From an uncultured Verrucomicrobiota bacterium (GTDB taxonomy: Bacteria; Verrucomicrobiota; Kiritimatiellia; RFP12; UBA1067), in contig CAMAHK010000004.1 in the NCBI GenBank assembly GCA_945834475.1, positions 1-60,763 on the forward strand: DNA of 60,763 nucleotides, given 5' to 3'. Of the stretch, positions 5,776-58,451 are shown in pieces. The position numbers and the translations under genes are program-made. The stretch's first letter is position 1, and every line of letters starts with the position of its first letter. The notes under the pieces were generated by a model. It did no database searches. It was not told the DNA's origin and worked only from the letters and a program-made list of their open reading frames with translations.

Positions 5776-7221
5776 ATGAGCGAAAAAGAGACACAGGGAC
5801 GCAAGGGCAACGGGCACAAAGGCAAGGAACGGCGCAAGGGCGCGGGCACACTTGAAAAGCGCGGGCGCGTTTATATTGCACGTTGGACGGTGGACGGGAA
5901 AAGGTACTCACAGAGTACGGGCACGGCTGACCGACGGGAAGCGGAGATAAAACTTGCTGAATTTGTCGCGCCGTTTCAGTTGAAGGACAAGGCGGAACGG
6001 TTGGAAGCGTTCGCCGGAAAACTTGGCGGCGTTCAAAGCCGATTGAAAGAGTTTGAGGACACGCGCCCCGCGTTGAAGATCGCGGACGCATGGGAAGCAT
6101 TTGTAAAAAGCCCTAACCGCAAGGACACGGCGGGCGCGGCGCGGTTGCGCATTTGCGAGGGGTGGGCGCGGCGTTTCGTTTCATTCATGGCGGAACGTTT
6201 CGCGGACGTTTCAGAAATGAGGAACGTGACGAAAGAACACGCGCACACGTTCGCGGCGGACGGCTACACGGGCGTTAGTAATTCGGTACGTAATCAAGCA
6301 ATATCGTTTTTTCGCATGATGTGGCGCGTACTGATCGCGGACGGCACGGCGCGAATTACTGAAAACGTATGGGACGGCATACAGAAGAAACACGAAACGC
6401 ACACGCGGCGGCGTGAGTTGACCGTCGAAGAGTTGGCGCGGGTTTACAAAATCTTACAGGGCGAAATGCGGCTATTGTTTTCTGTCGGCATTTACACTGG
6501 GCAACGGTTGGGTGATTGCGCTTGCTTGGATTGGGGACAAGTTGATTTGATACGCGGGCGCATTTCCCTTGTGCCGCGAAAGACGGCGCGGAAAACGGGG
6601 CGCATGGTTGTTATACCGTTGCACGTCAATTTGCTAAATATGCTTTTGGAAATTCCGGCGGCGAACCGTCGCGGGTACGTTATGCCGCAATGCGCGGAAA
6701 TGTATCTAAAACAGGCGGGCGAACTGTCGGCGCGGTTTATGCGCGTTTTCAAGTCGGCGGGAATCGAGACGGCAACCGAAGGACAAGAGGGAAGCCGAAA
6801 ACGATGTCTTGTCGGTTTCCATTCCTTACGGCATACGTTCGTATCACTTGCCGCAAATGCGGGCGTTCCGCTTGCGTTCGTGCAGTCGATAGTGGGACAT
6901 TCAACCGTAGAAATGACGCGGCATTATTTCCATGAATCGGAAGCGGCGTTAAATTCGGCGGTGTCCGCGTTGCCGGACATTGGGGCGGCGGGCGCGACGG
7001 GCGGCGAACTGTCGGCGCGGGTACGGTCTATATGTGCGTTGGTTGCCGAACTGACGGAAGCCGAGCGGGGCGAACTGTTGCGCCACTTGAACGCGGGCGG
7101 CGCGGTTGCGCCCATTCCGGCGGTAGAGGTTGCAACCGTGCCCGCGTTGCCGTGTCCGGCGGCGGACGTTCCGGCACAGGAACGCGGCACGGCAAAAGGC
7201 GCGGCACAGGCGGCGGCGTGA
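5776..7221 (+). CDS. int: Tyrosine-type site-specific integrase
   Basis: 481 aa. The catalytic pattern is R (TGQRLGD), H-x-x-R (HSLRHTF) and H...Y (GHSTVEMTRHY). It has a basic arm-binding-like N-terminus and a low-complexity C-terminal tail. Confidence 0.9.
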   Translation: MSEKETQGRKGNGHKGKERRKGAGTLEKRGRVYIARWTVDGKRYSQSTGTADRREAEIKLAEFVAPFQLKDKAERLEAFAGKLGGVQSRLKEFEDTRPALKIADAWEAFVKSPNRKDTAGAARLRICEGWARRFVSFMAERFADVSEMRNVTKEHAHTFAADGYTGVSNSVRNQAISFFRMMWRVLIADGTARITENVWDGIQKKHETHTRRRELTVEELARVYKILQGEMRLLFSVGIYTGQRLGDCACLDWGQVDLIRGRISLVPRKTARKTGRMVVIPLHVNLLNMLLEIPAANRRGYVMPQCAEMYLKQAGELSARFMRVFKSAGIETATEGQEGSRKRCLVGFHSLRHTFVSLAANAGVPLAFVQSIVGHSTVEMTRHYFHESEAALNSAVSALPDIGAAGATGGELSARVRSICALVAELTEAERGELLRHLNAGGAVAPIPAVEVATVPALPCPAADVPAQERGTAKGAAQAAA

Positions 7222-26977: not shown

Positions 26978-27130
26978 AGTACCCGGCGTGACCTCACGCC
27001 GAGGCGCGGTAAAAGCAAGCGGACGCGCCGCCTGCGGCGCCCGCGATGGTTTTGCGCGTTCCGCCTCGCTACGCGAAGGCGAAACGCTTACGGCTTGGTC
27101 CTGCCACGGCGTGAGGTCACGCCGGGTACT
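26978..27130. mobile_element. MITE-like composite REP element (~153 bp)
   Basis: The left end is AGTACCCGGCGTGACCTCACGCCGAGGCGCGGTAA and the right end is GGTCCTGCCACGGCGTGAGGTCACGCCGGGTACT, in inverted orientation. The internal segment is homologous to 30834-31018. Confidence 0.7.
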
Positions 27131-29132: not shown

Positions 29133-29202
29133 GGTCCTGCCTCGGCGTGAGGTCACGCCGGGTACTTTGTCAGCGCCACGGCGTGAGGTCACGCCGGGTA
29201 CT
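29133..29202. repeat. Two tandem REP copies
   Basis: GGTCCTGCCTCGGCGTGAGGTCACGCCGGGTACT followed by CAGCGCCACGGCGTGAGGTCACGCCGGGTACT. Confidence 0.85.
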
Positions 29203-39792: not shown

Positions 39793-39899
39793 AGCGCCAC
39801 GGCGTGAGGTCACGCCGGGTACTACTTGGTCCTGCCACGGCGTGAGGTCACGCCGGGTACTATTTGGTCCTGCCACGGCGTGAGGTCACGCCGGGTACT
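39793..39899. repeat. Three tandem REP copies
   Basis: (GGTCCT)GCCACGGCGTGAGGTCACGCCGGGTACT occurs three times. Confidence 0.9.
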
Positions 39900-39961: not shown

Positions 39962-40933
39962 ATGAATCGCATTCCCTTCATTCTTCTGGCGGCTTTCTCG
40001 CTGGCCCTTTCCTCCTTCGCGGAGGAGGCGTATCTCTTTTCGTACTTCAGCAATAAGGATTTCGGGGGGCGACGAGGTGAGGCCGCAGGACTTCACCTCG
40101 CCTATTCCTATGACGGCAAGACATGGACGGCGCTCAACGGGGACGAGCCGCTCCTGGTGCCGGAGGTCGGCAAGGACAGGCTGATGCGCGATCCGTCGAT
40201 CTGCCGGGGCCCGGACGGCGTCTTCCACATGGTCTGGACGTCGAGCTGGCACGACCGGATCATCGGCTATGCGTCCTCGACAAACCTTGTGGACTGGAGC
40301 GAGCAGCGGGCGATTCCCGTGATGACCCACGAGACGACGGCGCGAAACTGCTGGGCCCCGGAGCTGACGTATGATTCCGACAACGGACTTTTCTATATCT
40401 ACTGGGCGACGACCATTCCGGGGCGGCATACGCCGATCGCGGGCATGGAAAAGAAGGAAAACAAGCTCAATCACCGCATCTACCTGACGACGACAAAGGA
40501 CTTCAGGACCTTCTCGCCGACGCGGCTGTGGTTCAATCCGGACTTCAGTGCCATTGACGCCGCCGTCGTGCGCGATCCGGCGGCGAAGGACTGGATCATG
40601 GTCGTCAAGAACGAAAATCACACGCCAGCCGAGAAAAACATCCGCGTGACGCGGACGGCCGATCTCGCGACGGGCTTTCCGACGGAGGTTTCGTCCGCGA
40701 TCACGCCGAACTGGGTCGAGGGACCTTCGCCGCTTTTTGTCGGCGAGAGTCTTTACGTCTATTTCGACTGCTACACGAAAGGGCGCTTCGGCGCCGTGCG
40801 CAGCGACGATCGGGGGCAGACCTGGACGGATGTGAGCGGCGTGGTCTCCTTTCCGAAGGGCGTCCGTCACGGCACGGCCTTCGCCGTCGAGAAGAAGGTC
40901 GTTGACAGGCTCGTGAAGAGACTCGGGAAATAG
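39962..40933 (+). CDS. Secreted GH43-like five-bladed-propeller protein
   Basis: LMRDPSICRGPDG, CWAPELTYD..GLFYIYWA, AIDAAV and WVEGPSP correspond to the GH43 Asp/Asp/Glu-region motifs. It is a paralogue of the N-terminal domain of 41040..42947. Confidence 0.7.
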   Translation: MNRIPFILLAAFSLALSSFAEEAYLFSYFSNKDFGGRRGEAAGLHLAYSYDGKTWTALNGDEPLLVPEVGKDRLMRDPSICRGPDGVFHMVWTSSWHDRIIGYASSTNLVDWSEQRAIPVMTHETTARNCWAPELTYDSDNGLFYIYWATTIPGRHTPIAGMEKKENKLNHRIYLTTTKDFRTFSPTRLWFNPDFSAIDAAVVRDPAAKDWIMVVKNENHTPAEKNIRVTRTADLATGFPTEVSSAITPNWVEGPSPLFVGESLYVYFDCYTKGRFGAVRSDDRGQTWTDVSGVVSFPKGVRHGTAFAVEKKVVDRLVKRLGK

Positions 40934-41013
40934 TACCCGCCGTGACCTCACGGCGAGGCGTGGTAACGGTCGTGGCTGGGAGAGCGCCACGGCGTGAGGT
41001 CACGCCGGGTACT
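40932..41013. repeat. Inverted REP pair (mini-MITE, ~82 bp)
   Basis: AGTACCCGCCGTGACCTCACGGCGAGGCGTGGTAA ... AGCGCCACGGCGTGAGGTCACGCCGGGTACT. The left end overlaps the TAG stop of the previous gene. Confidence 0.85.
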
Positions 41014-41039
41014 AGAAAGAATGGTGGTTGTTGGAAGTG

Positions 41040-42947
41040 ATGCGTAGTTTGCTGATAGTATTGGCGCTGGCGATGGCCCTTTCCGCCTTTGGCGAAAAGG
41101 GATACCTCTTTTCGTATTTCAGCGACAATCCTTCGGGCGGACGGCGCGGCGAGGCCGCGGGGTTGCATCTCGCCTGGTCGTTTGACGGACTCAACTGGAC
41201 GGCGCTCAACAACGACCAGCCGATTCTCGTGCCCGCGTTGGGCCGTGCGCGCCTGATGCGCGACCCGTGCGTCTGCCGGGGACCGGACGAGACCTTTCAT
41301 CTCGTCTGGACGACGGACTGGACGGGCGGGTCCATCGGCTATGCTTCAACGCGTGACTTTGTGAATTGGACGCCGCAACGCGAGCTGCCGGTGATGGCCG
41401 ATGAACCGACGACGCGCAACTGCTGGGCGCCGGAGCTCACGTACGATCCGAAGGACGGACTCTTCTATCTCTACTGGTCCTCGACGATCCCGGACCGCCA
41501 TTCGCCGATTCCCGACATGGACAAGCGCGAAGCGGCGCTCAACCACCGCATCTACCGGGCGACAACACGGGATTTCGAGACCTTTTCGCCGTCGCGGCTC
41601 TGGTTTAATCCGGACTATAGCGCGATTGACGCCTCGCTCTGTTACGTTCCCGCGGCGGACGACTGGCTCTTCTTCGTCAAGAACGAAAACCACACGCCGC
41701 TCCAGAAGAACCTGCGGATGATGCGCGTGAAGTCCCTCGCGGGCGACCTGCCGTCCGCAACCGGCGAGCCGCTGACGGGGGCGTGGACGGAAGGGCCGAG
41801 TGCACTCTGGGTCGACAAGACGCTTTATCTCTACTTCGACCTTTACAAGGCGCATGCCTACGGCGTGTTGCAGAGCCTTGACGGCGGCCGGACCTGGACG
41901 GATGTCTCGGACCGGCTGCGCATGCCGCGCGGCATGCGTCATGGCACGGCGTTCGAGGTTGACCGCAGTCTCATCTATGATCTCCTAAACGTTCGATGGG
42001 AGCCGTCAACGCCGACGGAGACGTCCGCCGCGACGACGGAAACGCACGGCGTGACGCTGGCCGGTCTCACGATGGGTGCCGAAAAGCTCCTTCGATATGG
42101 CGAGAAGGTCCGGATCGAGGGGGAACTTACGTATCTCGTCTCCGACGGTGCCGACTTCCATTTGACAATGGATGCGAATGGCGAGCTGAAGGTTGTTGCC
42201 GTGCCGAGTTGGTGGACGCCCGCTCGTGTGGCGACAGCCCTTGTGCTTGTGCTCCTGCTGATTGCGGCGCTTCTCGGTTGGGCGCTGGTCTTGCGCCACC
42301 AGAAGAAGGCCGAGGCCCGCGTCAACGAGGCCGTTCAGAAGGAGCGCCTGCGTCTGTCGCGCGACCTGCACGACGGCTATCAGCAGCTTCTGGCCGGCTG
42401 TATGTTCCGCCTCACGGCCGCCACGACGCTTGTCGGCAAGAACGCGACCGCCAAGGCGCTCGCCCAGCTCGAGGGCTTGCGCAGTTCGCTGACACACGCC
42501 CAGGCGGAACTCCGTGCGGCGCTGTGGACGATGACCGAAGAGGCCGAAGGCCCGGCGGCCGTGGCGGATCTCTTCCGCTATGCCTCTTCGCGTCTGCCCC
42601 ACTGGGAGGGCATCGTCTCCTTCGAGACGGAAGGCGTGGAAAAGCCGATTACGCGGCGTTATGCGGGCGCGCTCCTGATGATTCTGCAGGAAGCGGTCGG
42701 CAATGCGATCCGTCACGGCGGGGCGACATCCGTGCGCGTCAAAGTCGTCTTTGGACGAAAGGGACTTGCGATGATCGTCAGGGATAACGGCTGTGGCTTC
42801 GATCTCGCGGCGGCGGAGGCGAGGTCCGGCGGACTCAATCTCGGACTTTCCGGCATGCGCAGCCGCGCCGAGAAAATCGGCGGACGTTTCGCGGTGCGGG
42901 CTTGGCCCGGTCGGGGCGCGGAGGTGCGCGTAATTTTGGGGGAATGA
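41040..42947 (+). CDS. Sensor histidine kinase with extracytoplasmic GH43-like domain (GH43-like + TM + HisKA_3 + HATPase_c)
   Basis: The N-terminal 300 aa are homologous to 39962..40933. The TM segment is ATALVLVLLLIAALLGWALVL. LSRDLHDGYQQLL marks the HisKA_3 His, and ILQEAVGNAIRHG..DNGCGFD marks the ATPase. I chose ATG 41040; the track starts at TTG 41028. Confidence 0.8.
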   Translation: MRSLLIVLALAMALSAFGEKGYLFSYFSDNPSGGRRGEAAGLHLAWSFDGLNWTALNNDQPILVPALGRARLMRDPCVCRGPDETFHLVWTTDWTGGSIGYASTRDFVNWTPQRELPVMADEPTTRNCWAPELTYDPKDGLFYLYWSSTIPDRHSPIPDMDKREAALNHRIYRATTRDFETFSPSRLWFNPDYSAIDASLCYVPAADDWLFFVKNENHTPLQKNLRMMRVKSLAGDLPSATGEPLTGAWTEGPSALWVDKTLYLYFDLYKAHAYGVLQSLDGGRTWTDVSDRLRMPRGMRHGTAFEVDRSLIYDLLNVRWEPSTPTETSAATTETHGVTLAGLTMGAEKLLRYGEKVRIEGELTYLVSDGADFHLTMDANGELKVVAVPSWWTPARVATALVLVLLLIAALLGWALVLRHQKKAEARVNEAVQKERLRLSRDLHDGYQQLLAGCMFRLTAATTLVGKNATAKALAQLEGLRSSLTHAQAELRAALWTMTEEAEGPAAVADLFRYASSRLPHWEGIVSFETEGVEKPITRRYAGALLMILQEAVGNAIRHGGATSVRVKVVFGRKGLAMIVRDNGCGFDLAAAEARSGGLNLGLSGMRSRAEKIGGRFAVRAWPGRGAEVRVILGE

Positions 42948-46492: not shown

Positions 46493-49400
46493 ATGAGAAC
46501 TTCAATACTGAATCTGGTGGCGGTCCTGGGGGCCTTGGCGGCCTCGGCGGCTGTGACGGAACTCCCCAACGGCGGCGTGTGGAATGATACGGATGGCGTG
46601 ATGATCAACGCCCATGGCGGCGCCCTGATGCGGGACGGCGACACGTGGTACTGGTACGGTGAGCACAAGACGGCCGGCGGCGCGGGCAACAAGGCCTGGG
46701 TCGGCGTCAGCTGCTATTCGTCGACGAATCTCCTCGACTGGGTCAACGAGGGGACGGCCTTCAAGGTTGCGTCGGCGGACGAGGTGAAGGCGAATCCGAA
46801 GCTGGCCGACGTCGAGGCGGGCTGCATCCTGGAACGTCCCAAGGTCGTCAAGGCGCAGGACGGTTCGCGTTATGTCATGTACTTCCATCTTGAACCGAAG
46901 GGACAGGGTTACAGTGGCGCACAGACCGGCATCGCCGAGTCGGCGACGCCGACGGGGCCGTTTACGCTCGTCTGGAACGGACGCCCCAATGCGGGAGAGC
47001 GACCGGTCAACGGTTCCGATGACGATCCGCTTGAGTGGCGCGCTCCATGGGGCGGCATCGCCAAGCAGTGGCGCTTCCATCTGCCGGGCGGACAGATGAG
47101 CCGCGACATGACGCTCTACACCGACCCGAAGGACGGCACGGTCTATCACATTTTCGCGAGCGAGGACAACTCGTGCCTGCATCTCGCCGAGGTTCGTCCC
47201 GACGGCCTCGGCTACACGGGCAAGTGGGCGCGCCTCTCGCACGGCGAGTGGACGGAAGCCCCGGCTGTCGTCAAGCGTGGCGACTGGTACTTTCTTCTTG
47301 GTTCCGGGTGCACGGGATGGCGTCCCAACGCCGCGCGTTACTATCGCGCGAAGTCGATCTGGGGACCGTGGGAGCGGATGGGGAATCCCTGCCGCGGTGG
47401 GGTGAATCCCGAAATCACCTGGGGTGGACAGTCCACCGGCATCTTCGAGGTGAATGGCACGACTTTCGCGATGTTCGACCGGTGGCAGCCGAAGAACGCG
47501 ATCGACGGGCGCTACGTGTGGGTGCCGATCGCCTTCACCGATCGCGGAACGATGACGATTGACTGGCGCGAGACCTTCAAGCCGCAGCTCGCGGAGCCGT
47601 GGGAAGACGAATACGTGAGCGACGTGAACCGCCTCCCCGCCCGCACGCCGATCCATCCCCTTGACCCCCGCCACACTCTCAGCCTCGACGGCGACTGGTC
47701 CTTCCAATTAGTACCCGGCGTGACCTCACGCCGTGGCGCTGACAATCCCGCAGACACGCCCGCCGTCACGCTTCCCGTTCCGAGTTGCTGGCAGGTCGAG
47801 GGCGCGCGTCGCGGCCTCGACTGGGATCCGCCGCTTTACATCAATGTCAAATATCCGATCGCCTACGATCCGCCGCGTGTGACGACCGAGCCGGCGGATA
47901 AGAGCTGGACGAGCTTTAGGTTTCGCAATCCGCGCGGCATCTATCGGCGCCGCGTGACGCTCCCGTCGGATTGGGCGGGGCGCCGCGTGACCTTGCGTCT
48001 GAACGGCTATTCGAGCGCCGTCTACGTGCGCGTCGACGGCCGGACGATTGGCTACGGCGAGGACGGTCGGCTGCCGAACGAGTGGGATCTCACGCCCTCT
48101 CTCTCAACCTCAACCTTCGACCTCGAACTCGAGGTCCTCAAGCACTGCGACGGTACGTATCTCGAAGATCAGGACTTCTGGCGGATGAGCGGACTCTTCC
48201 GCTCGGTCGAGTTGATCAGCGAGGCGACGGCGGGACTCGTCGATTTCAATGTGAAGACGCGGGTTGAAGGCAAGACGGGTGTCGTCGGCATCGCGGCGAA
48301 AGGGGGTTCGCCTGTCTCGTGGAAGCTTTTTGATTTCCGGGGAGACGAACTCGGACGCGGTCTCGCCGGCGACGAGCTGACGGTGCCGAACGTGCAGCTC
48401 TGGAGCCCCGAAAAGCCGACGCTTTATCGCGTTCGCGTCGAGTGCGCGGGCGATGTCTACGAGAAGCGCTTCGGCTTCCGGACGGTGACGATCGAGGACG
48501 GCGTCCTCAAGCTCAACGGCGGACGCGTCGTCATTCACGGCGTCGACCGTCACGAGATGTCGGCCGAAGGCGGTTATGCGATGACGCGCGTGGAGATGAA
48601 GAGGGATGTCGAGCTCCTGAAGAAGTTCAACATCAACGCGGTGCGCACGTCGCATTATCCGAACGATCCGCATTGGTACGATCTCTGCGACGAACAAGGC
48701 ATCCTCGTCGTCGCCGAGGCGAACATCGAGTGCCACGGGTCGGGGCATCCGCTCAAGACGACGGCGCTCTCGCATGTCCCGAGCTGGCGCAAGAGCTTTG
48801 TCGAGCGCAATCTCAATCAGGTCGCCGTGCTTCGGGACCATCCGTCGATCATCACGTGGTCGCTCGGCAACGAAAGCGGGACTGGCGCGAATATGATCGC
48901 CGCGTATGAGGCGGTGAAGCTGGCGGACCCGACGCGTCCCTGCCAGTACGAGGGTGTGTTCAATCCCTATGCCAGGCAGGCGTTCGACGCCTACGGCAGC
49001 GATATCATCTGTCCCATGTACGAGACGCCGGAAAAGGTCGAGCGCGCGATGAAGAAGGGCTTCAAGCGTCCCTACATCCTCTGCGAGTACTCGCACGCGA
49101 TGGGCAACTCGAATGGCAATTTCGACGAGTACATGGCGCTCCTGGACAAGTATCCGTCGTTCCAGGGTGGCTTCATCTGGGACTTCGCCGACCAGGCGCT
49201 CCTCGTCAACGGACAGCTCAGGTACGGCGGAGACTTCGGGGACCGGCCGAACGACGGACACGGTCACTGCAACGGACTCTTCGACGCTCTCCGCAATCCT
49301 CACCCCGGCGCCTACGAAGTCGGCTACTGGTACGGGGGAAGGAAGAAGGTGGAGAAAGTAGGGGAAGGTGGAGATGATGATCAGGCTAATATCCAATGTC

Positions 49401-50110
49401 CACCTCCACCTCTTTCCTCCACCTCAATCCCTCCAACCTTCTCCCTCTCTTTCTGGCGGGCGCCGACGGACAATGATCGCGGGAACAAGTCGCCGCGGCG
49501 ACTGGACGTCTGGAGGAAGGCGACGGAGACGGGTGTGCTGCCCGAGGGCGTGACGACGAATCTTGTGGTGACGACGACCGAGAGGGGCTATGACGTCGAT
49601 TTCACGATGACGGTTCTCGAGGGACTTCCCGAGCTCCCGCGCGTCGGCCTTGTCTTCGAGGTGGCCGGCACGCCGGAGACGGTTGTCAGCTGGCACGGTG
49701 CGGGTCCGCACGAGAACTATTCGGACCGTCGCGCTTCCGCCCCGATCGGCGATTACGCGATGACCGTTGCCGAGCTCAACGATTCGCATTATGTTCGTCC
49801 TCAGGAGTGCGGGCACCGCCCGGCGACGGACCGCCTGCAGATCGGAAATCTCGTCCTTCGTCAACCGCAACCTTCAACCGCATCTCCCTTCGAATGGAAC
49901 GTCCAGCCTTGGACGGTCTTCGATCAGGAGAAGGCGCGTCATGCTGAGGAACTGCCGGCGCCGGATGGAAAGCTCCGCGTCTATGTCGACGCGGCGATGC
50001 GCGGCGTTGGCGGCGACGACAGCTGGGGCGCCGCCGTGCATGCGCCTTATCGCCTGGAGGGCGCGCGGATCTACCGGTTGCAATTCGCTCTGGCGTGTCC
50101 AAATGAGTGA
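46493..50110 (+). CDS. Fusion protein: GH43 (exo-beta-1,3-galactanase-like) N-terminal domain + GH2 beta-galactosidase
   Basis: The N-terminus has DTDGVMINAHGGALMRDGDTWYWYGEHK (GH43_24-like). The GH2 part has WSLGNESG (acid/base) and ILCEYSHAMGNS (nucleophile, compare LacZ ILCEYAHAMGNS). 1205 aa. Confidence 0.85.
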   Translation: MRTSILNLVAVLGALAASAAVTELPNGGVWNDTDGVMINAHGGALMRDGDTWYWYGEHKTAGGAGNKAWVGVSCYSSTNLLDWVNEGTAFKVASADEVKANPKLADVEAGCILERPKVVKAQDGSRYVMYFHLEPKGQGYSGAQTGIAESATPTGPFTLVWNGRPNAGERPVNGSDDDPLEWRAPWGGIAKQWRFHLPGGQMSRDMTLYTDPKDGTVYHIFASEDNSCLHLAEVRPDGLGYTGKWARLSHGEWTEAPAVVKRGDWYFLLGSGCTGWRPNAARYYRAKSIWGPWERMGNPCRGGVNPEITWGGQSTGIFEVNGTTFAMFDRWQPKNAIDGRYVWVPIAFTDRGTMTIDWRETFKPQLAEPWEDEYVSDVNRLPARTPIHPLDPRHTLSLDGDWSFQLVPGVTSRRGADNPADTPAVTLPVPSCWQVEGARRGLDWDPPLYINVKYPIAYDPPRVTTEPADKSWTSFRFRNPRGIYRRRVTLPSDWAGRRVTLRLNGYSSAVYVRVDGRTIGYGEDGRLPNEWDLTPSLSTSTFDLELEVLKHCDGTYLEDQDFWRMSGLFRSVELISEATAGLVDFNVKTRVEGKTGVVGIAAKGGSPVSWKLFDFRGDELGRGLAGDELTVPNVQLWSPEKPTLYRVRVECAGDVYEKRFGFRTVTIEDGVLKLNGGRVVIHGVDRHEMSAEGGYAMTRVEMKRDVELLKKFNINAVRTSHYPNDPHWYDLCDEQGILVVAEANIECHGSGHPLKTTALSHVPSWRKSFVERNLNQVAVLRDHPSIITWSLGNESGTGANMIAAYEAVKLADPTRPCQYEGVFNPYARQAFDAYGSDIICPMYETPEKVERAMKKGFKRPYILCEYSHAMGNSNGNFDEYMALLDKYPSFQGGFIWDFADQALLVNGQLRYGGDFGDRPNDGHGHCNGLFDALRNPHPGAYEVGYWYGGRKKVEKVGEGGDDDQANIQCPPPPLSSTSIPPTFSLSFWRAPTDNDRGNKSPRRLDVWRKATETGVLPEGVTTNLVVTTTERGYDVDFTMTVLEGLPELPRVGLVFEVAGTPETVVSWHGAGPHENYSDRRASAPIGDYAMTVAELNDSHYVRPQECGHRPATDRLQIGNLVLRQPQPSTASPFEWNVQPWTVFDQEKARHAEELPAPDGKLRVYVDAAMRGVGGDDSWGAAVHAPYRLEGARIYRLQFALACPNE
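47710..47740. repeat. REP element embedded in-frame in the GH43-GH2 CDS
   Basis: AGTACCCGGCGTGACCTCACGCCGTGGCGCT is translated as ..VPGVTSRRGA.. between WSFQL and ..LPVPSCWQ. Confidence 0.8.
49334..49453. repeat. Purine-arm / pyrimidine-arm imperfect inverted repeat inside the GH2 CDS
   Basis: GGGGGAAGGAAGAAGGTGGAGAAAGTAGGGGAAGGTGGAG..loop..CCACCTCCACCTCTTTCCTCCACCTCAATCCCTCCAACCTTCTCCCTCTCTTTC. It is lower in GC than its flanks and is translated as ..RKKVEKVGEGGDDDQANIQCPPPPLSSTSIPPTFSLS.. Confidence 0.45.
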
Positions 50111-53717: not shown

Positions 53718-53734
53718 AGCTGGGTGAACAGAAC

Positions 53735-53820
53735 CCTCGGCGTGACGGTCAGCAGAGTACCCACAGCCGAGCGAAGCGAGACAGCCGAAGGCCGCGTGAC
53801 CTCACGCCGAGGCAGGGTAA
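53735..53820. repeat. Degenerate REP cluster
   Basis: CCTCGGCGTGACGGTC .. AGAGTACCC .. GGCCGCGTGACCTCACGCCGAGGCAGGGTAA. Confidence 0.6.
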
Positions 53821-53825
53821 CAGCA

Positions 53826-55367
53826 ATGACCGAAATTCTTCTTCTTGCAACGACGTTTCTGAATCCCATCCTTCCGGCGGATTTCAGCGACATCGACTGC
53901 ATCCGCTACGAAGGGCGTTACTATGCGATCTCTTCGACGCTCCATCTTTGCCCGGGAATGGATGTCCTCGCGTCGGACGACATGGTCGACTGGCAGGTGA
54001 CGGGTCCTGTCGTCAACGACACGTCCGTCTTCGGCGATGCGTGGACCTGGAAGCGGATGCGTCGCTATGGACGCGGTGTGTGGGCCGGATGTCTCCGCAA
54101 GCGGCAGGGAACGTTCTTCTGCTATTTCGGGACACCCGACGAGGGGCTTTTCGTTGCGACGGCCGAGCGTCCGGAAGGTCCGTGGTCATCGCCGCACAAG
54201 ATGTCCGGCTTCGGCGGCGGCTGGGACGATACGGGTGTTCTGTTCGACGGCACGAACGGCTATCTTGTCGCAACACATTTCGCCGACAAGTACAAGACCT
54301 ATGTCTTCAAGCTGACGGACGATGCGCACGAGGTGATTCCTGAAACGAAGACGCTTGTCAACGAAGGGCAGGGACGCGAGGCGAACAAGCTCTACAAGTG
54401 GAACGGCCTGTATTACCACCTCTACAGCGAAGTCGCAAAAGGAGGCCGCCGCCTGATGATGGCGCGTGCGACAAGTCCGTTCGGTCCCTACGCCGAGCGC
54501 CGCGTCCTTTCACATCCGCAGCCCGAGGCCGACGAGCCGAACCAGGGCGGATTCCTGACAGACGATGCGGGCAATTGGTTCTTCTTCACCCATCACGGAC
54601 GCGGGCGGTGGTATGGTCGTGCGGCAAGTCTCCTGCCCGTCACCTGGATCGACGGCTGGCCGATCATCGGCAAGCCCGACAAAGACGGCATCGGCACGAT
54701 GGTCTGGGAGGTGGAGCGGCCGAAGGTGAGTACCCGCCGTGAGAGTACCCGGCGTGACCTCACGCCGAGGCAGGGTAATGGCTCCTTTACCACGCCACGC
54801 CGTGAGGTCACGGCGGGTACTTTTCTCTCCCCTGACTGGGCCTGGAACCATGCGCCGCGCAGGGACCACTTTACAATCGCCGGGAATAGCCTGACGTTGC
54901 GTCCGTTTCGTCCCCTCGACACCAACGACTTCTTCACCGTCGGCAACGTCTACACACGGCGCGCCTTTTGTCCTTCCGCCGACGCCACTTCCGCTTTCGC
55001 CATCGCCCTTGACGCGTCGCATCTGGCGGAAGGCGCACGTGCGGGGATCTGTCATCTCGGCGGCGACACCTGCGAGTTCGGCCTGGCGGTCGAGGACGGG
55101 CGGCGCGTTCTCTATCTGCGGCGCAACAAGAGGGAGCGAACCGTTCTCGCGACGGACATGCCGACGTGCGTCGTGCTGAAGACCGAGTGGAATGCGAAAG
55201 GCGTCGCCCGCTTCGCCTCTTCGACGGACGGAAAGTCGTTCACGGACGCGGGGATCGACTTCACGCTCCGCTGGGGGAACTACCGCGGCGACCGCGTCGG
55301 CGTCTATGCCTACACGCTGGGCGAGGGGACGGGAGAGGTCGGCTTTGGGGAAGTGAAGGTCTACTGA
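53826..55367 (+). CDS. GH43 glycoside hydrolase (beta-xylosidase/alpha-L-arabinofuranosidase type) with C-terminal beta-sandwich domain
   Basis: It starts MTEILLLATTFLNPILPADFSDIDCIRYEGRYYAISSTLHLCPGMDVLASDDMVDW, a classic GH43 N-terminus. The track ORF start at 53724 reads through REP DNA. Confidence 0.85.
   Translation: MTEILLLATTFLNPILPADFSDIDCIRYEGRYYAISSTLHLCPGMDVLASDDMVDWQVTGPVVNDTSVFGDAWTWKRMRRYGRGVWAGCLRKRQGTFFCYFGTPDEGLFVATAERPEGPWSSPHKMSGFGGGWDDTGVLFDGTNGYLVATHFADKYKTYVFKLTDDAHEVIPETKTLVNEGQGREANKLYKWNGLYYHLYSEVAKGGRRLMMARATSPFGPYAERRVLSHPQPEADEPNQGGFLTDDAGNWFFFTHHGRGRWYGRAASLLPVTWIDGWPIIGKPDKDGIGTMVWEVERPKVSTRRESTRRDLTPRQGNGSFTTPRREVTAGTFLSPDWAWNHAPRRDHFTIAGNSLTLRPFRPLDTNDFFTVGNVYTRRAFCPSADATSAFAIALDASHLAEGARAGICHLGGDTCEFGLAVEDGRRVLYLRRNKRERTVLATDMPTCVVLKTEWNAKGVARFASSTDGKSFTDAGIDFTLRWGNYRGDRVGVYAYTLGEGTGEVGFGEVKVY
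54729..54821. repeat. Inverted REP pair (mini-MITE, ~93 nt) embedded in-frame in the GH43 CDS
   Basis: AGTACCCGCCGTGAGAGTACCCGGCGTGACCTCACGCCGAGGCAGGGTAATGG..CCACGCCACGCCGTGAGGTCACGGCGGGTACT is translated as ..STRRESTRRDLTPRQGNGSFTTPRREVTAGT.. at the catalytic/C-terminal domain junction. Confidence 0.85.
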
Positions 55368-55688
55368 AGGTCGGTTTCAACGGCCATCAACCCGATCTCG
55401 CCGAGCGCTATGACGAGCGGCTCGCCTCTGCCCCGATAGACTGGCGCTTACCCATTAATAGCCGATTTAACAGCAGGTCGCTTCGCGACACGCAGATTTG
55501 CGCCCGATTCAAAATGTCGTCGCCCCGAGCACTAAGGTTGGTTGTTGTCCTTTCTGCGTGCGGCGAAGCCGCCTGCGGTTAAAATCAGAAAATGGGTAAT
55601 AGGTGTTGCAACTCAACGGAGCGGGATTTTGGTACAATAACCACTTAAGGTATGTTGTGCAAGTTTCTGGCCTAAGGAGTTTTACCGG

Positions 55689-55913
55689 ATGAAATCATGG
55701 AACGAGATTCGCAAGGCGGCGACGGCCTTCTCGAAGCGGTGGAAGTCGGCCTTTGACGAGAAGTCTCAGGCGCAGTCGTTCCTGAAGGAGTTCTTCGAGG
55801 TTTTCGGCGTCGATACCGTCCAACAGGCGACCTTCGAGCATCGCGTGAAGTTCGCGGACGGCTCGCAGGGTTTTGTCGATTGCTTCTGGCCCGGGACGAT
55901 TCTTAAATCTTAA
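55689..55913 (+). pseudogene. N-terminal fragment of an MmeI-like type IIL/IIG restriction-modification enzyme
   Basis: WNEIRKAATAFSKRWKSAFDEKSQAQSFLKEFFEVFGVDTVQQATFEHRVKFADGSQGFVDCFWPGTIL fits the MmeI-family N-terminal domain and stops after 74 codons. TGgTACAAT (55630-55638) and AAGGAG lie upstream. Confidence 0.7.
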
Positions 55914-55994
55914 AGCTGCGCGAATTTCCTGAGGAGCGATAGCAGTGTTTCGGTCTGAAATGGTATAATGATAGAGTAATTTTTTTGATTTCAT

Positions 55995-56912
55995 ATGAGC
56001 AAGTCTGAAACATCACAAAAAGAAAACAAGTCCCAGAGTGTCCTTGTCGGTACTTATCGTCTAGAGAACAAGGCTTGGATTCAGGAGCGGAAGGTCTATA
56101 ACCTCCCGTTGCCTGACAGTGCCGATGCGAAAGTCTACGAAAAGTTCACGTCGATTGTGCTGTATGCTGGCGACGAACTGCCGCTCGCTTACACGGCTGC
56201 GTTCTCGCAAGTTGTGGAGAAGTCTTGGCTTAAGGAAAATGGTTATTCGATGTCGTCTACGCCGCATAGCAAACGGTATGTGCTTTTCGCGCTGAAAAAG
56301 AAGACCTCGGCTTCGAAGTTGCTCGCCAATCCTTCCTCCGAAGTGTATGTTTGTTCCACGCGCTGGACAGGGAAGATTGACGCTGAGTTTTACGCCAAGC
56401 CGTTGCCGGATTGTGGCGGCAAGTCGATTCCCAATATCTTTGAGAAGATTAAACCCTACTTCAACAAATGGAAGTCGGCGTGTGCGTTCAACCCCGTGCA
56501 GATGGATTTCTTCGGGGTTATCGATAAGGATCTTTCAAAGCTTGATATCGTAAACAAGCGTCCGGCCGACGGCGTTAAGTATGCAATGATCGACCTTTTT
56601 GCGGGCGCGGGCGGGCTTTCAGAGGGACTGGAGGAGGCTGGATTTCACAGCATCTTTGCGTCGGAAATCGTTCCGCAGTATGCCGACACCTACAGGAAGA
56701 ATCATCCGGGTACAACCGTGATGACCCAAGACATTCGCAAACTTGACGCGGAAAGCATTCGCAAGCAACTTGGAATCAGAAAAGGTCAGCTTGCGTTGAT
56801 TGCTGGCGGCCCGCCGTGTCAGGGCTTCTCGATCAACGCTCCGATTCGCAGTACGTTAGACCAGCGCAACCACCTCTTCAAAGAGTATCTCAGGTTTGTC
56901 GATGTTGCTTGA
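55995..56912 (+). pseudogene. Truncated DNA (cytosine-5) methyltransferase with an unknown N-terminal domain
   Basis: Motif I is IDLFAGAGGLSEGL and motif IV is GGPPCQGFS, followed by DQRNHLFKEYLRFVDV. The ORF then ends. Motifs VI (ENV), VIII (QRR), TRD and IX-X are absent. Confidence 0.65.
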
Positions 56913-56931
56913 TTGTGGAAAGGATTAAGAC

Positions 56932-57435
56932 ATGCAATATCAGCAATTCCCGCGCTCACGTGGCATAACCGAAGAGTTGCAAAATATCGTAAAGGCTTTT
57001 CAGAAAGTTGAAGGTGATATATGTTCAGCGACTCACTCGTTGACATCTAATGAGGTGCTCGCGTTCTTATGTCCCCACCTTATGTCCCTTGGTTTTAAAG
57101 TCGAGACGGGGAAATCTGTAGAAAAGAAGATTGACGTGCCAGTTCTGTTTGGGCGCGACAATCATATCGATAAGTCTTTTTTTGCTGACGCTCTAAGTGC
57201 TGATGGGCGGATTGTGATTGAGGTCGAGGCAGGGCAGGCAATTGAAAATCATCGGTTCTTGAAGGATATCTTTGAGGCATCGATGATGTTTGAGGTTGAG
57301 TATTTGGTGCTGGCCGTGCGAAATAAGTATCGTTCGCATCTTGACTTTGACAGGGTGTATCAGTTTCTTGAAACAATGTATATAAGCAATCGAATCATAC
57401 TTCCTTTGAAGGGAATTATGTTAATCGGATACTGA
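56932..57435 (+). CDS. BglII/BamHI-like type II restriction endonuclease-fold protein (putative)
   Basis: D..ADGRIVIEVEAGQAIENHRFLKDIFE resembles the (D)-x-n-(V/I)E(V)(E/Q)xG(N/Q) core of BglII/BamHI-type enzymes. It lies next to the C5-MTase remnant in a low-GC patch. Confidence 0.45.
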   Translation: MQYQQFPRSRGITEELQNIVKAFQKVEGDICSATHSLTSNEVLAFLCPHLMSLGFKVETGKSVEKKIDVPVLFGRDNHIDKSFFADALSADGRIVIEVEAGQAIENHRFLKDIFEASMMFEVEYLVLAVRNKYRSHLDFDRVYQFLETMYISNRIILPLKGIMLIGY

Positions 57436-57448
57436 TGAGGAGTTGCCG

Positions 57449-57691
57449 ATGATGTCGGGTTCATCCGTTATTGTTGTCACTGTTAGCGAACAATTGCCGG
57501 GTCATGGGAATAAAACAGATATTGCCGTGTTCTCAACGCTGGATAAGGCAGAAACGTGGATTGAGCATGAAATATCGTTGATTGTAAAGCGAGAGAATCT
57601 GTCTCCGGATGCCGTTGACGGGTGGTTTGTTGAATTTCCAGACGCCAGCCACACCATCCAGTTCGATGTTTATGAGCGGGATGTGCTTTGA
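57449..57691 (+). CDS. Hypothetical small protein
   Basis: GAGGAG lies 6 nt before ATG 57449. No family recognised. Confidence 0.4.
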   Translation: MMSGSSVIVVTVSEQLPGHGNKTDIAVFSTLDKAETWIEHEISLIVKRENLSPDAVDGWFVEFPDASHTIQFDVYERDVL

Positions 57692-57722
57692 TACTTGTGG
57701 ACATGTACTTAATGGTTTGTCT

Positions 57723-58139
57723 ATGTCATATAAAGTGAAACAAAATTTCGTGGCTGATACGGTTGGGCTCAACTGGGAGAATGTCTCAAAGCGCATCATT
57801 CCGCAGCTCATCTACAAAGGCCAGGTTCTTCAGCGAGAGGAGCTTTGCAAGACGGGGCTTTATTTCGTCTGCCCGCTACCTATCTATAAGCGCGTTCTTA
57901 ACAGATTGGGTGGTAAGGACAAAATTCCGTCATTCCCGACCCAGCCAGCCGCTATACACTTCTTGGCATACGATTACACAAAGGACTTCAAGGATGTCCC
58001 AAAGGGTGAAATCATGCCGCTTGATGTCATCGAGGAACATTGCACGACGGTGTACAAGGTTCAGGAAGCCTTTTCGGCTGTCAGCCTGCCCGAAGGTAAT
58101 GTCTATGGCAATGCGCTGAAGAAGTGTCTTTACGGTTGA
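57723..58139 (+). CDS. Hypothetical protein (possible second nuclease/specificity component)
   Basis: The ORF frame runs 57609..58139 and the start is uncertain (ATG 57681 or 57723). No family recognised. Confidence 0.4.
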   Translation: MSYKVKQNFVADTVGLNWENVSKRIIPQLIYKGQVLQREELCKTGLYFVCPLPIYKRVLNRLGGKDKIPSFPTQPAAIHFLAYDYTKDFKDVPKGEIMPLDVIEEHCTTVYKVQEAFSAVSLPEGNVYGNALKKCLYG

Positions 58140-58170
58140 TGCTAAGCCGGATGTCAGTTGGCAAAGCAAG

Positions 58171-58377
58171 ATGAGAAAGAACTTCTGGCGTTGGTTAGTG
58201 GTTGACGTCCTCGGGCTGGCGATTCTCTACAATCCCGAGACCATGCCGCCCGATCTTCTAAAGGCGCACCAGCATCTTGATGCGCTCGTTGACAAGGCCT
58301 ACGGCAAGAAGTTCGCGAACGACGCCGAGCGCGTCGCCCACCTCTTCGACCTCTACGCGGCAGCTGTGAAAGGGTGA
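58171..58377 (+). pseudogene. C-terminal fragment of the MmeI-like RM enzyme
   Basis: ..LAILYNPETMPPDLLKAHQHLDALVDKAYGKKFANDAERVAHLFDLY.. matches the conserved MmeI-family C-terminus. It is in a different frame from the N-terminal fragment. Confidence 0.7.
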
Positions 58378-58378
58378 C

Positions 58379-58398
58379 AGTCTCATAAATATGAGACT
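58379..58398 (+). terminator. 8-bp hairpin after the MmeI remnant
   Basis: AGTCTCAT, loop AAAT, then ATGAGACT. There is no clear U-tract. Confidence 0.35.
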
Positions 58399-58451
58399 CA
58401 AGGTCAGACCTATAATCTCGGATTTATGAGACTTGCGCGGGGTAGAAAATT

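Follow-up and report, generated by a model that had tools for sequence, protein, structure and literature searches.

The subject of this analysis is a 93-nt element at positions 54729-54821 (forward strand) of a pig-gut Kiritimatiellia contig, CAMAHK010000004.1, of which a stretch of 60.8 kb (hereafter, the window) was analysed in whole. The element belongs to a family of repetitive extragenic palindromes (REPs) and is translated as 31 codons within a glycoside hydrolase gene. This gene (53826-55367, forward strand), delineated from the list of open reading frames (ORFs), Pfam matches, a relative in the PDB, an AlphaFold2 model and the ratio of nonsynonymous to synonymous divergence (dN/dS), encodes a protein of 513 amino acids in which a five-bladed propeller (Glyco_hydro_43, residues 11-279, E = 5e-41 in Pfam) is combined with a C-terminal beta-sandwich (GH43_C2, residues 333-503, E = 1.4e-11). 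A single open frame runs from the ATG at 53826 to the stop at 55367, uninterrupted through the element, with an alternative GTG start at 53724, and the translation across the element reads ...GTMVWEVERPKV-STRRESTRRDLTPRQGNGSFTTPRREVTAGT-FLSPDWAWNHAP..., where STRRESTRRDLTPRQGNGSFTTPRREVTAGT is the REP-derived linker, residues 302-332. Given the Pfam domain limits at residues 279 and 333, this linker falls exactly between the two domains.

Judging from the sequence comparisons, the host gene is intact and under constraint and apparently encodes a working enzyme. The closest solved structure, the GH43-CE protein 6MLY (E = 1e-32 over residues 12-507), likewise has a loop at the linker position, and the candidate catalytic Asp/Asp/Glu columns, D19, D134/D135 and E185, are invariant in 96 homologues. 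Against two orthologues that themselves carry REP linkers (L002 and L003; synonymous divergence, dS, 0.7-1.0), dN/dS amounts to 0.11 over the propeller and to 0.17-0.24 over the C-terminal domain, values that mean that the gene is not dead. In the AlphaFold2 model, built on an alignment of 96 homologues, both domains are confident (mean predicted local distance difference test score, pLDDT, 91.5; predicted template modelling score, pTM, 0.89), residues 306-328 are the sole segment with pLDDT < 50, and secondary structure is absent over residues 298-330; residues 302-332 are predicted to form a disordered loop between the domains. Among metatranscriptome contigs (Logan), of low depth and with DNA carry-over possible, one reads through a short form of the linker (RNA run X23) and one ends in the spacer of the long form (RNA run X22), which is weak evidence of read-through transcription.

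The linker DNA (AGTACCCGCCGTGAG AGTACCCGGCGTGACCTCACGCCGAGGCAGGGTAATGGCTCCTTTACCACGCCACGCCGTGAGGTCACGGCGGGTACT) has a fuller anatomy than the inverted pair of REPs that an earlier, sequence-only reading had seen in it. That pair does exist, with 38-nt arms (54744-54781 and 54784-54821) that are 84% complementary. Its left member (54744-54778, forward strand) combines an exact match to the common "G-type" core with a conserved tail (AGTACCCGGCGTGACCTCACGCCGAGGCAGGGTAA), and its right member (54784-54821, reverse strand) contains a "C-type" core at 54798-54820 and is followed by TTTTCTCT, which belongs to conserved FLSP codons. Outside this pair lies a left half-REP of the rare C-type variant (AGTACCCGCCGTGAG, 54729-54743, forward strand); these first 15 nt of the element pair perfectly with its last 14 nt (54808-54821; a 14-nt inverted match, 100% complementary). 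Because of this pairing, the element is not a simple pair: it is a palindromic REP of 30 nt, interrupted by a nested stretch of 63 nt. The nested segment (54735-54797, forward strand), found by repeat search and present or absent among strains (see below), lies between 9-nt direct repeats, CGCCGTGAG, at 54735-54743 and 54798-54806, with a spacing of 63 nt, and the element also holds a 15-nt direct duplicate of the REP left half. What had been taken for a spacer, AGGCAGGGTAA, turns out to be the conserved REP tail, which recurs at 26979, 30835, 40933 and 53806. Folded as RNA, the 93-nt element reaches -63.3 kcal/mol (z = -6.7; none of 200 shuffles folds as well), and the hairpin of 54744-54821 alone reaches -54.9 kcal/mol (z = -8.3). 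A pattern scan marked the REP hairpin followed by TTTTC (TTTTCTCT) at the right REP as terminator-like, but such sites are not above background (3 found compared to 2.2 +/- 2.1 in shuffles). The sole Rfam match is sub-threshold, of the hairpin to the miRNA precursor mir-B6 (35 bits compared to the gathering score of 89), and is attributed to chance.

That the linker is REP-family DNA is borne out by the abundance of its 23-nt core, GTACCCGSCGTGACCTCACGSCG, for which there are 20 matches in the window compared to 0.00 expected. Copies of the family are about 30 times as dense as chance would give and lie mostly in intergenic DNA, and in metagenomes, the depth of the core k-mers is about 50-90 times that of single-copy flanks. 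Among 185,579 GTDB species representatives, almost all exact matches to the core are in a metagenome-assembled genome (MAG), Kiritimatiellia bacterium LOHA43_bin.016, which represents a different species (the orthologue of a neighbouring GH43-GH2 protein is 66% identical); of the three further loci, an "uncultured Verrucomicrobia" MAG has two and a Clostridiales MAG one. The latter copy (L037, SFIL01000055.1, positions 1027-1049) is on a 5.6-kb contig that was probably mis-binned as Clostridiales. The window and the related MAG, together 387 kb, contain 172 REP matches, and the only loci in genuine genes are the GH43 linker and a loop of a GH2 domain (discussed below), that is, the family is nearly excluded from coding DNA, as expected for REPs. 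Several candidate cases were discarded: the long ORFs spanning REPs in L043 and L045 of the related MAG translate into Arg-rich nonsense (antisense or non-coding), and the antisense ORFs over 26979 and 40932-41013 in the window are spurious. The same-strand tandem arrays of REPs with a period of 36-40 nt, including truncated half-units, at 39800-39898 and 29143-29201 in the window, L045:1011-1313 and L047:5690-5890, keep long spurious ORFs open and could pass for genes or CRISPR-like arrays.

A counterpart of the linker element is the intergenic inverted REP pair at 40932-41013 (forward strand), where sequence and folding agree with the likeness proposed from the sequence alone: the architecture is the same, and the predicted folding energy is -57.4 kcal/mol. 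This REP adjoins the upstream gene (39962-40933), for which its first bases provide the TAG stop. The repeats are short, GC-rich imperfect palindromes, present in high copy number in one lineage, as REPs are, and at 54744-54821 and 40932-41013, inverted REPs with a short spacer form one long hairpin, the arrangement of REPINs (REP doublets forming hairpins); the terminus of all intact copies is (A)GTAC, not the GTAG of the GTAG superfamily. [quoted passage not shown] In the LOHA43 MAG, arrays of the linker-type REP are located on both sides of an ORF of 251 codons (L047:5901-6656, reverse strand), the product of which has the HUH motif NHLHIL and a C-terminal Y...NPEKAGL motif and scores 23.3 bits against Pfam Y1_Tnp (cut-off 23); a second Y1 gene of the related MAG is at L042:3819-4709. 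By these sequence features, the family behaves as a REP/REPIN family with a putative partner resembling REP-associated tyrosine transposases (RAYTs). The label of a mini-MITE, which had been applied to the linker element, does not fit: terminal inverted repeats like those of insertion sequences are absent, nothing outside the REP itself is duplicated as a target site, the sole direct repeat, CGCCGTGAG, belongs to the REP arms, and flanking duplications are absent at 40932-41013 as well as at 47710-47745. We set this label aside because the family is REP/REPIN-like and the transposase candidates are of the Y1/HUH type.

The linker is polymorphic among strains. The window sequence is present in pig-gut and faecal metagenomes, and Logan contigs of 12 runs (X1-X12) were placed on the locus, 11 of them informatively (X11 was uninformative). 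The junctions of the long form appear in three samples (X1, X2 and X9), and a precise skip of the 63 nt in eight (X3, X4, X5, X6, X7, X8, X10 and X12); RNA run X23 has the short form and X22 the long form. In L001, from another pig-gut sample (protein P0001, gene 99% identical), the entire linker consists of AGTACCCGCCGTGAGGTCACGGCGGGTACT, that is, 54729-54743 joined to 54807-54821, one 30-nt palindromic REP that encodes STRREVTAGT. The window allele is this allele plus 63 nt between the copies of CGCCGTGAG, and both alleles are in frame. X5 is short and yet differs from the window by one single-nucleotide polymorphism (SNP) over about 840 nt; X9 appears to be long on a divergent SNP background that is common to the short-form X8 and X10. 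The presence of the alleles on several SNP backgrounds indicates recurrence or recombination. In X1, X2 and X9, unitigs break inside the high-copy REP core, such that continuity of the long form comes from a 26-nt unitig overlap and the window assembly; both long-form junctions are supported by independent assemblies, and the window is the only public contig that spans all 93 nt. The absence of the inner 63 nt from 8 of the 11 informative samples implies that this segment is dispensable.

Comparison of orthologues extends this picture to other lineages. REP linkers are found in the two lineages at 80% identity, one represented by L002 and the other by L003 and L004, and in none of the relatives at 70% identity or below, whose linkers, about 12 residues long and rich in Pro and Lys, are unrelated; the insert is, accordingly, not a conserved protein sequence. 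L002 (80% protein identity) has REP DNA at the same codon position, arranged as a decayed half-REP and an almost perfect inverted pair (99 nt), which folds at -84.6 kcal/mol. In L003 and L004, 78 nt at the same codon position consist of three decayed 15-nt half-REPs and one intact palindrome. Whether 30, 78, 93 or 99 nt long, each arrangement has a length divisible by three and contains no stop codon. Hairpins are very stable in every lineage, at -33, -55, -85 and -46 kcal/mol, the second value being that of the window and the third that of L002. The joint between half-REP and REP, CGTGAG|AGTACCC, is unique in the 387 kb of the window and the related MAG and yet common to three lineages at the same codon, which points to one old colonisation followed by remodelling. 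We considered GTGAG^AGTAC as a cleavage joint of the entire REP family and rejected it because, in the 387 kb, the joint is confined to the linker locus; it serves here to mark common ancestry instead. No REP within 4 mismatches is present in the ten closest metagenome loci (L056-L065), and in a scan of metagenome contigs for nearer orthologues, the best match was 63% identical, besides one partial match at 78%; the history of the linker thus rests on four lineages. Two of the REP-bearing orthologues show irregularities of their own at the 3' end: P0003 (L002:1477-2793) is without about 85 residues of the beta-sandwich domain, and P0002 (L003:5001-6809) continues for about 90 residues beyond the usual stop, where the sequence includes a degenerate REP (6797-6819).

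A search for further in-frame REPs in the window and the related MAG yielded a second locus, identified by core match, ORF and orthologues: a REP at 47710-47745 (forward strand; LVPGVTSRRGADN) in a GH43-GH2 beta-galactosidase-like gene of 1205 codons (46493-50110), a fusion architecture that is kept in a dozen relatives. This REP occupies a variable loop of the GH2_N domain, between the motifs "LDGxWxF" and "VPSCWQ". The orthologues L137 and L138 (81-82% identity) have a REP in the same loop, with other central bases (peptides STSRREVTPGT and VPGVFSRRG, respectively). At 63-70% identity, the loop is short in seven of nine relatives; P0125 and P0127 have 8-11 extra residues in it and no recognisable REP peptide. 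Within the species, 42 extra in-frame nucleotides occur inside the tail of the REP in L136, a strain of 98% identity, and also in sample X3. The GH2 loop is the same phenomenon as the GH43 linker, again with in-frame alleles.

The most plausible interpretation, which we favor with fair confidence, is that the element is a tolerated selfish passenger that colonised DNA coding for an interdomain linker and has been remodelled since. Under this scenario, the REP/REPIN family of this lineage would have entered the DNA coding for the surface linker between the propeller and the beta-sandwich, the first insertion most likely preceding the split from the two 80% relatives (dS ~0.75) and following the split from the 70% relative. 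Since then, half-REPs of 15 nt would have been duplicated in the resident REP cluster, and segments lying between REP arms gained or lost, one of them the 63 nt that separate the copies of CGCCGTGAG. These changes were most probably replication-slippage deletions across the hairpin, although a RAYT-mediated event is possible; only presence/absence polymorphisms are seen, and slippage explains them as well as mobilisation by a RAYT would. Direct repeats flanking a strong hairpin are a classical substrate for replication slippage, and if there was one old colonisation, the short allele would have arisen by deletion from one 9-nt repeat to the other. The length of REP units is 15 or 30 nt, and whatever their orientation, stop codons are lacking in two frames out of three; with selection presumably purging out-of-frame or stop-bearing variants, it follows that every surviving arrangement is translated, as an Arg/Thr/Pro-rich and presumably disordered loop that the enzyme would tolerate. 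Tolerance, one of the two options raised by the sequence-only reading, accords with the intact, constrained gene, the predicted disorder of the loop and the four in-frame arrangements. By sequence and structure model, the linker thus appears similar to a Rickettsia palindromic element (RPE): an in-frame repeat at a putatively permissive surface position of a gene under constraint. RPEs were reportedly described by Ogata et al. (2000, Science 290:347; 2002, Genome Res 12:808).

Several observations weigh against a neutral passenger that entered once. The right-hand REP differs from those of L002 and L003 at only 2 of 26 positions, at a synonymous-site difference (pS) of 0.48 for the gene, and both differences are mirror-image compensatory changes from the G-type to the C-type core, of which there are only 2 exact copies compared to 115 of the G-type. 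Such conservation exceeds that of a neutral passenger; to explain it, the copy must have evolved in concert with the genomic REP family or been inserted anew, or else the hairpin must be constrained. Furthermore, each allele occurs on more than one SNP background, reference-like and divergent alike, and the direction of the 63-nt event is ambiguous, the split perfect palindrome pointing to a nested insertion and the joint shared with L002 and L003 to a deletion. No RAYT gene was detected in the window by a motif search or by tblastn with an E. coli RayT query, and the RAYT-like protein of L047, which comes from a related genome, scores 63 bits against NCBIfam REP_Tyr_transpos, below the cut-off of 80. 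Some of these points suit recurrent, independent insertion at a hotspot, either the linker as such or the resident hairpin, with the window lineage, L002 and L003 being hit separately and the long allele representing a recent nested insertion. A nested insertion would leave precisely what is seen, an outer half-REP and a last arm that make up a perfect 14-bp palindrome split by 63 nt; the short allele is in the majority, on diverse SNP backgrounds; the almost perfect 31-bp stem of the inverted pair in L002 looks young; and the REPs of the GH2 loop differ in their central bases between lineages. However, the half-REP|REP joint, unique in 387 kb, recurs in three lineages at the same codon, the leftmost half-REPs of L002 and L003 have decayed, which suggests age, and a 9-nt target duplication is not expected from Y1/HUH transposition of the IS200/IS605 type. 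We therefore regard the hotspot scenario as unlikely, although it deserves more credence than the other alternatives.

Exaptation, the other option of the sequence-only reading, in which the hairpin (in DNA or mRNA) or the peptide would be kept for a function, seems distinctly improbable. Conceivable roles include a pause for co-translational folding, an internal attenuator or terminator yielding a propeller-only product, mRNA stability and a linker of tunable length. The palindrome is conserved beyond the synonymous-site expectation, with compensatory G/C changes, every lineage has a very stable hairpin, REP linkers have been retained over dS ~0.75, and TTTTCTCT follows the hairpin, a site that was flagged as terminator-like. 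Nevertheless, turnover or gene conversion in an active REP family predicts the same conservation, most strains lack the 63 nt, REP-free relatives manage with a linker of about 12 residues, and the T-tract simply corresponds to the FLSP codons, which are conserved in REP-free relatives, too. An effect of the hairpin on transcription finds no echo in the data either, given that terminator-like matches are no more numerous than in shuffled sequences and that an RNA-run contig spans the short-form linker. Highly improbable, and more so than exaptation, is a gene that is decaying as a pseudogene, or a 93-nt structure that arose as an artefact when a high-copy repeat was collapsed or chimerically joined in assembly. 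The break of the X1, X2 and X9 unitigs in the REP core might suggest an artefact, as the loss of most of the C-terminal domain in the L002 orthologue and the very low RNA coverage might suggest decay; but three DNA samples and one RNA run each give independent support to the two long-form junctions, the eight short-allele samples show the flanks in direct contact, the four different arrangements are all in frame and stop-free, the catalytic residues are invariant and dN/dS is 0.11-0.24. The gene, with its ORF intact, is not split. A more elaborate idea, to which we assign little probability, goes beyond the tolerated passenger: REP clusters in coding DNA would be actively rebuilt in 15-nt (5-codon) modules by the REP machinery or by hairpin-templated repair, with the hairpin (and the U-rich tract) acting as an interdomain pause or attenuator. 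We keep it in view because of the conserved palindrome, the compensatory changes in the arms and the in-frame indel alleles in two genes; if true, secreted or degradative carbohydrate-active enzymes (CAZymes) would vary within a species in the length of their surface loops and of the linkers between their domains.

Intragenic REPs, including dimers in glycoside hydrolase genes, are already known, as are RPEs, and the tolerated passenger does not open a new mechanism. According to the main text of Di Nocera et al. (2013, BMC Genomics 14:522, PMC3733652), REPs inside genes are catalogued in several species, the highest number of the GTAG type being that of Opitutus terrae, of the Planctomycetes-Verrucomicrobia-Chlamydiae (PVC) superphylum, and over half of the intragenic inserts are dimers or groups that encode 20-30 amino acids; the hosts given in its supplementary table include glycoside hydrolase genes of families 2 and 20. 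As described there, the GTAG-type repeats resemble the present family in many respects: they are high-copy, GC-rich palindromes, mostly intergenic and often located just after genes, with REP ends often providing TAG stops, as at 40930 here; a minority lies wholly inside ORFs as monomers or dimers, in hosts that include PVC bacteria and in genes that include glycoside hydrolases; and modular proteins are argued to tolerate the inserts (PMC3733652). The family described here is, however, a different one in sequence, with the 5' tag GTAC and an uncultured pig-gut Kiritimatiellia host; the degenerate tags GYAG, GYRG, GTRG, GTMG and GTGG are given in that paper, and GTAC is absent from its main text (PMC3733652). 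Relative to the same main text, the locus analysed here adds population data, namely, two loci with in-frame presence/absence alleles within a species, as well as REP linkers kept in three lineages across dS ~0.75, nesting, dN/dS and a structure model.

In the account available in PMC10969869, the RPEs of Rickettsia are in-frame selfish palindromes in functional genes, compatible with the fold and translated as an extra peptide, and the likeness to the linker is one of in-frame palindromic selfish repeats at fold-compatible positions. There are differences in kind: RPE-1, as portrayed there, is about 100-150 bp long, encodes a conserved peptide and resides in reduced intracellular genomes, whereas here the modules are REPs of 15 or 30 nt. 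No RAYT association is known to have been claimed for RPEs. The present REPs show a strong depletion in coding DNA, with 2 loci for 172 matches. The REPIN-RAYT systems (Bertels and Rainey 2011, PMC3116915; Nunvar et al. 2010, PMC2817692) share with the present family the inverted REP pair with a short spacer that forms a long hairpin and the lineage specificity; the RAYT-like gene of L047, with the same REPs on both sides, may correspond to their single-copy Y1/HUH transposase gene. Unlike the linker, REPINs are described as extragenic, and the RAYT-like protein here, as noted, does not reach the curated cut-off and belongs to a related genome. The literature searched contained no paper that couples Kiritimatiellia with REPINs.

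The GH43 linker and the GH2 loop thus extend intragenic REPs to gut Kiritimatiellia and make a clean, well-controlled case for selfish palindromes persisting in working genes only in disordered linkers and loops, in stop-free frames and in lengths divisible by three. There are practical implications as well: REP-bearing genes are liable to be broken up or wrongly annotated by gene callers and assemblers, and REP-coded peptides can yield false "conserved motifs" across unrelated proteins.

The surroundings of the GH43 gene offer some additional observations. Just 5' of its ATG, an interrupted REP remnant (AGTACCC, about 30 nt and GCGTGACCTCACGCCGAGGCAGGGTAA; 53755-53822, forward strand) was recognised by reading the sequence. 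The REP tail of this remnant (GGCAGGGTAACAGCAATG) occupies the position of the ribosome-binding site of the gene, and owing to the remnant, the choice of GTG-53724 as the start would append a spurious, REP-coded N-terminal extension to the protein. Directly 3' of the gene, over 55400-58400, GC content falls from about 0.62 to 0.44-0.52, and in an ORF at 55995-56912, a C-5 cytosine DNA methylase domain is represented by its N-terminal third alone; the region is perhaps a restriction-modification island that was acquired horizontally or has degraded. Farther upstream, the ORF at 41028-42947 combines a GH43-like domain (residues 77-269) with HisKA_3 and HATPase_c, and its product may be a glycan-sensing histidine kinase with a sensor domain of the glycoside hydrolase fold.

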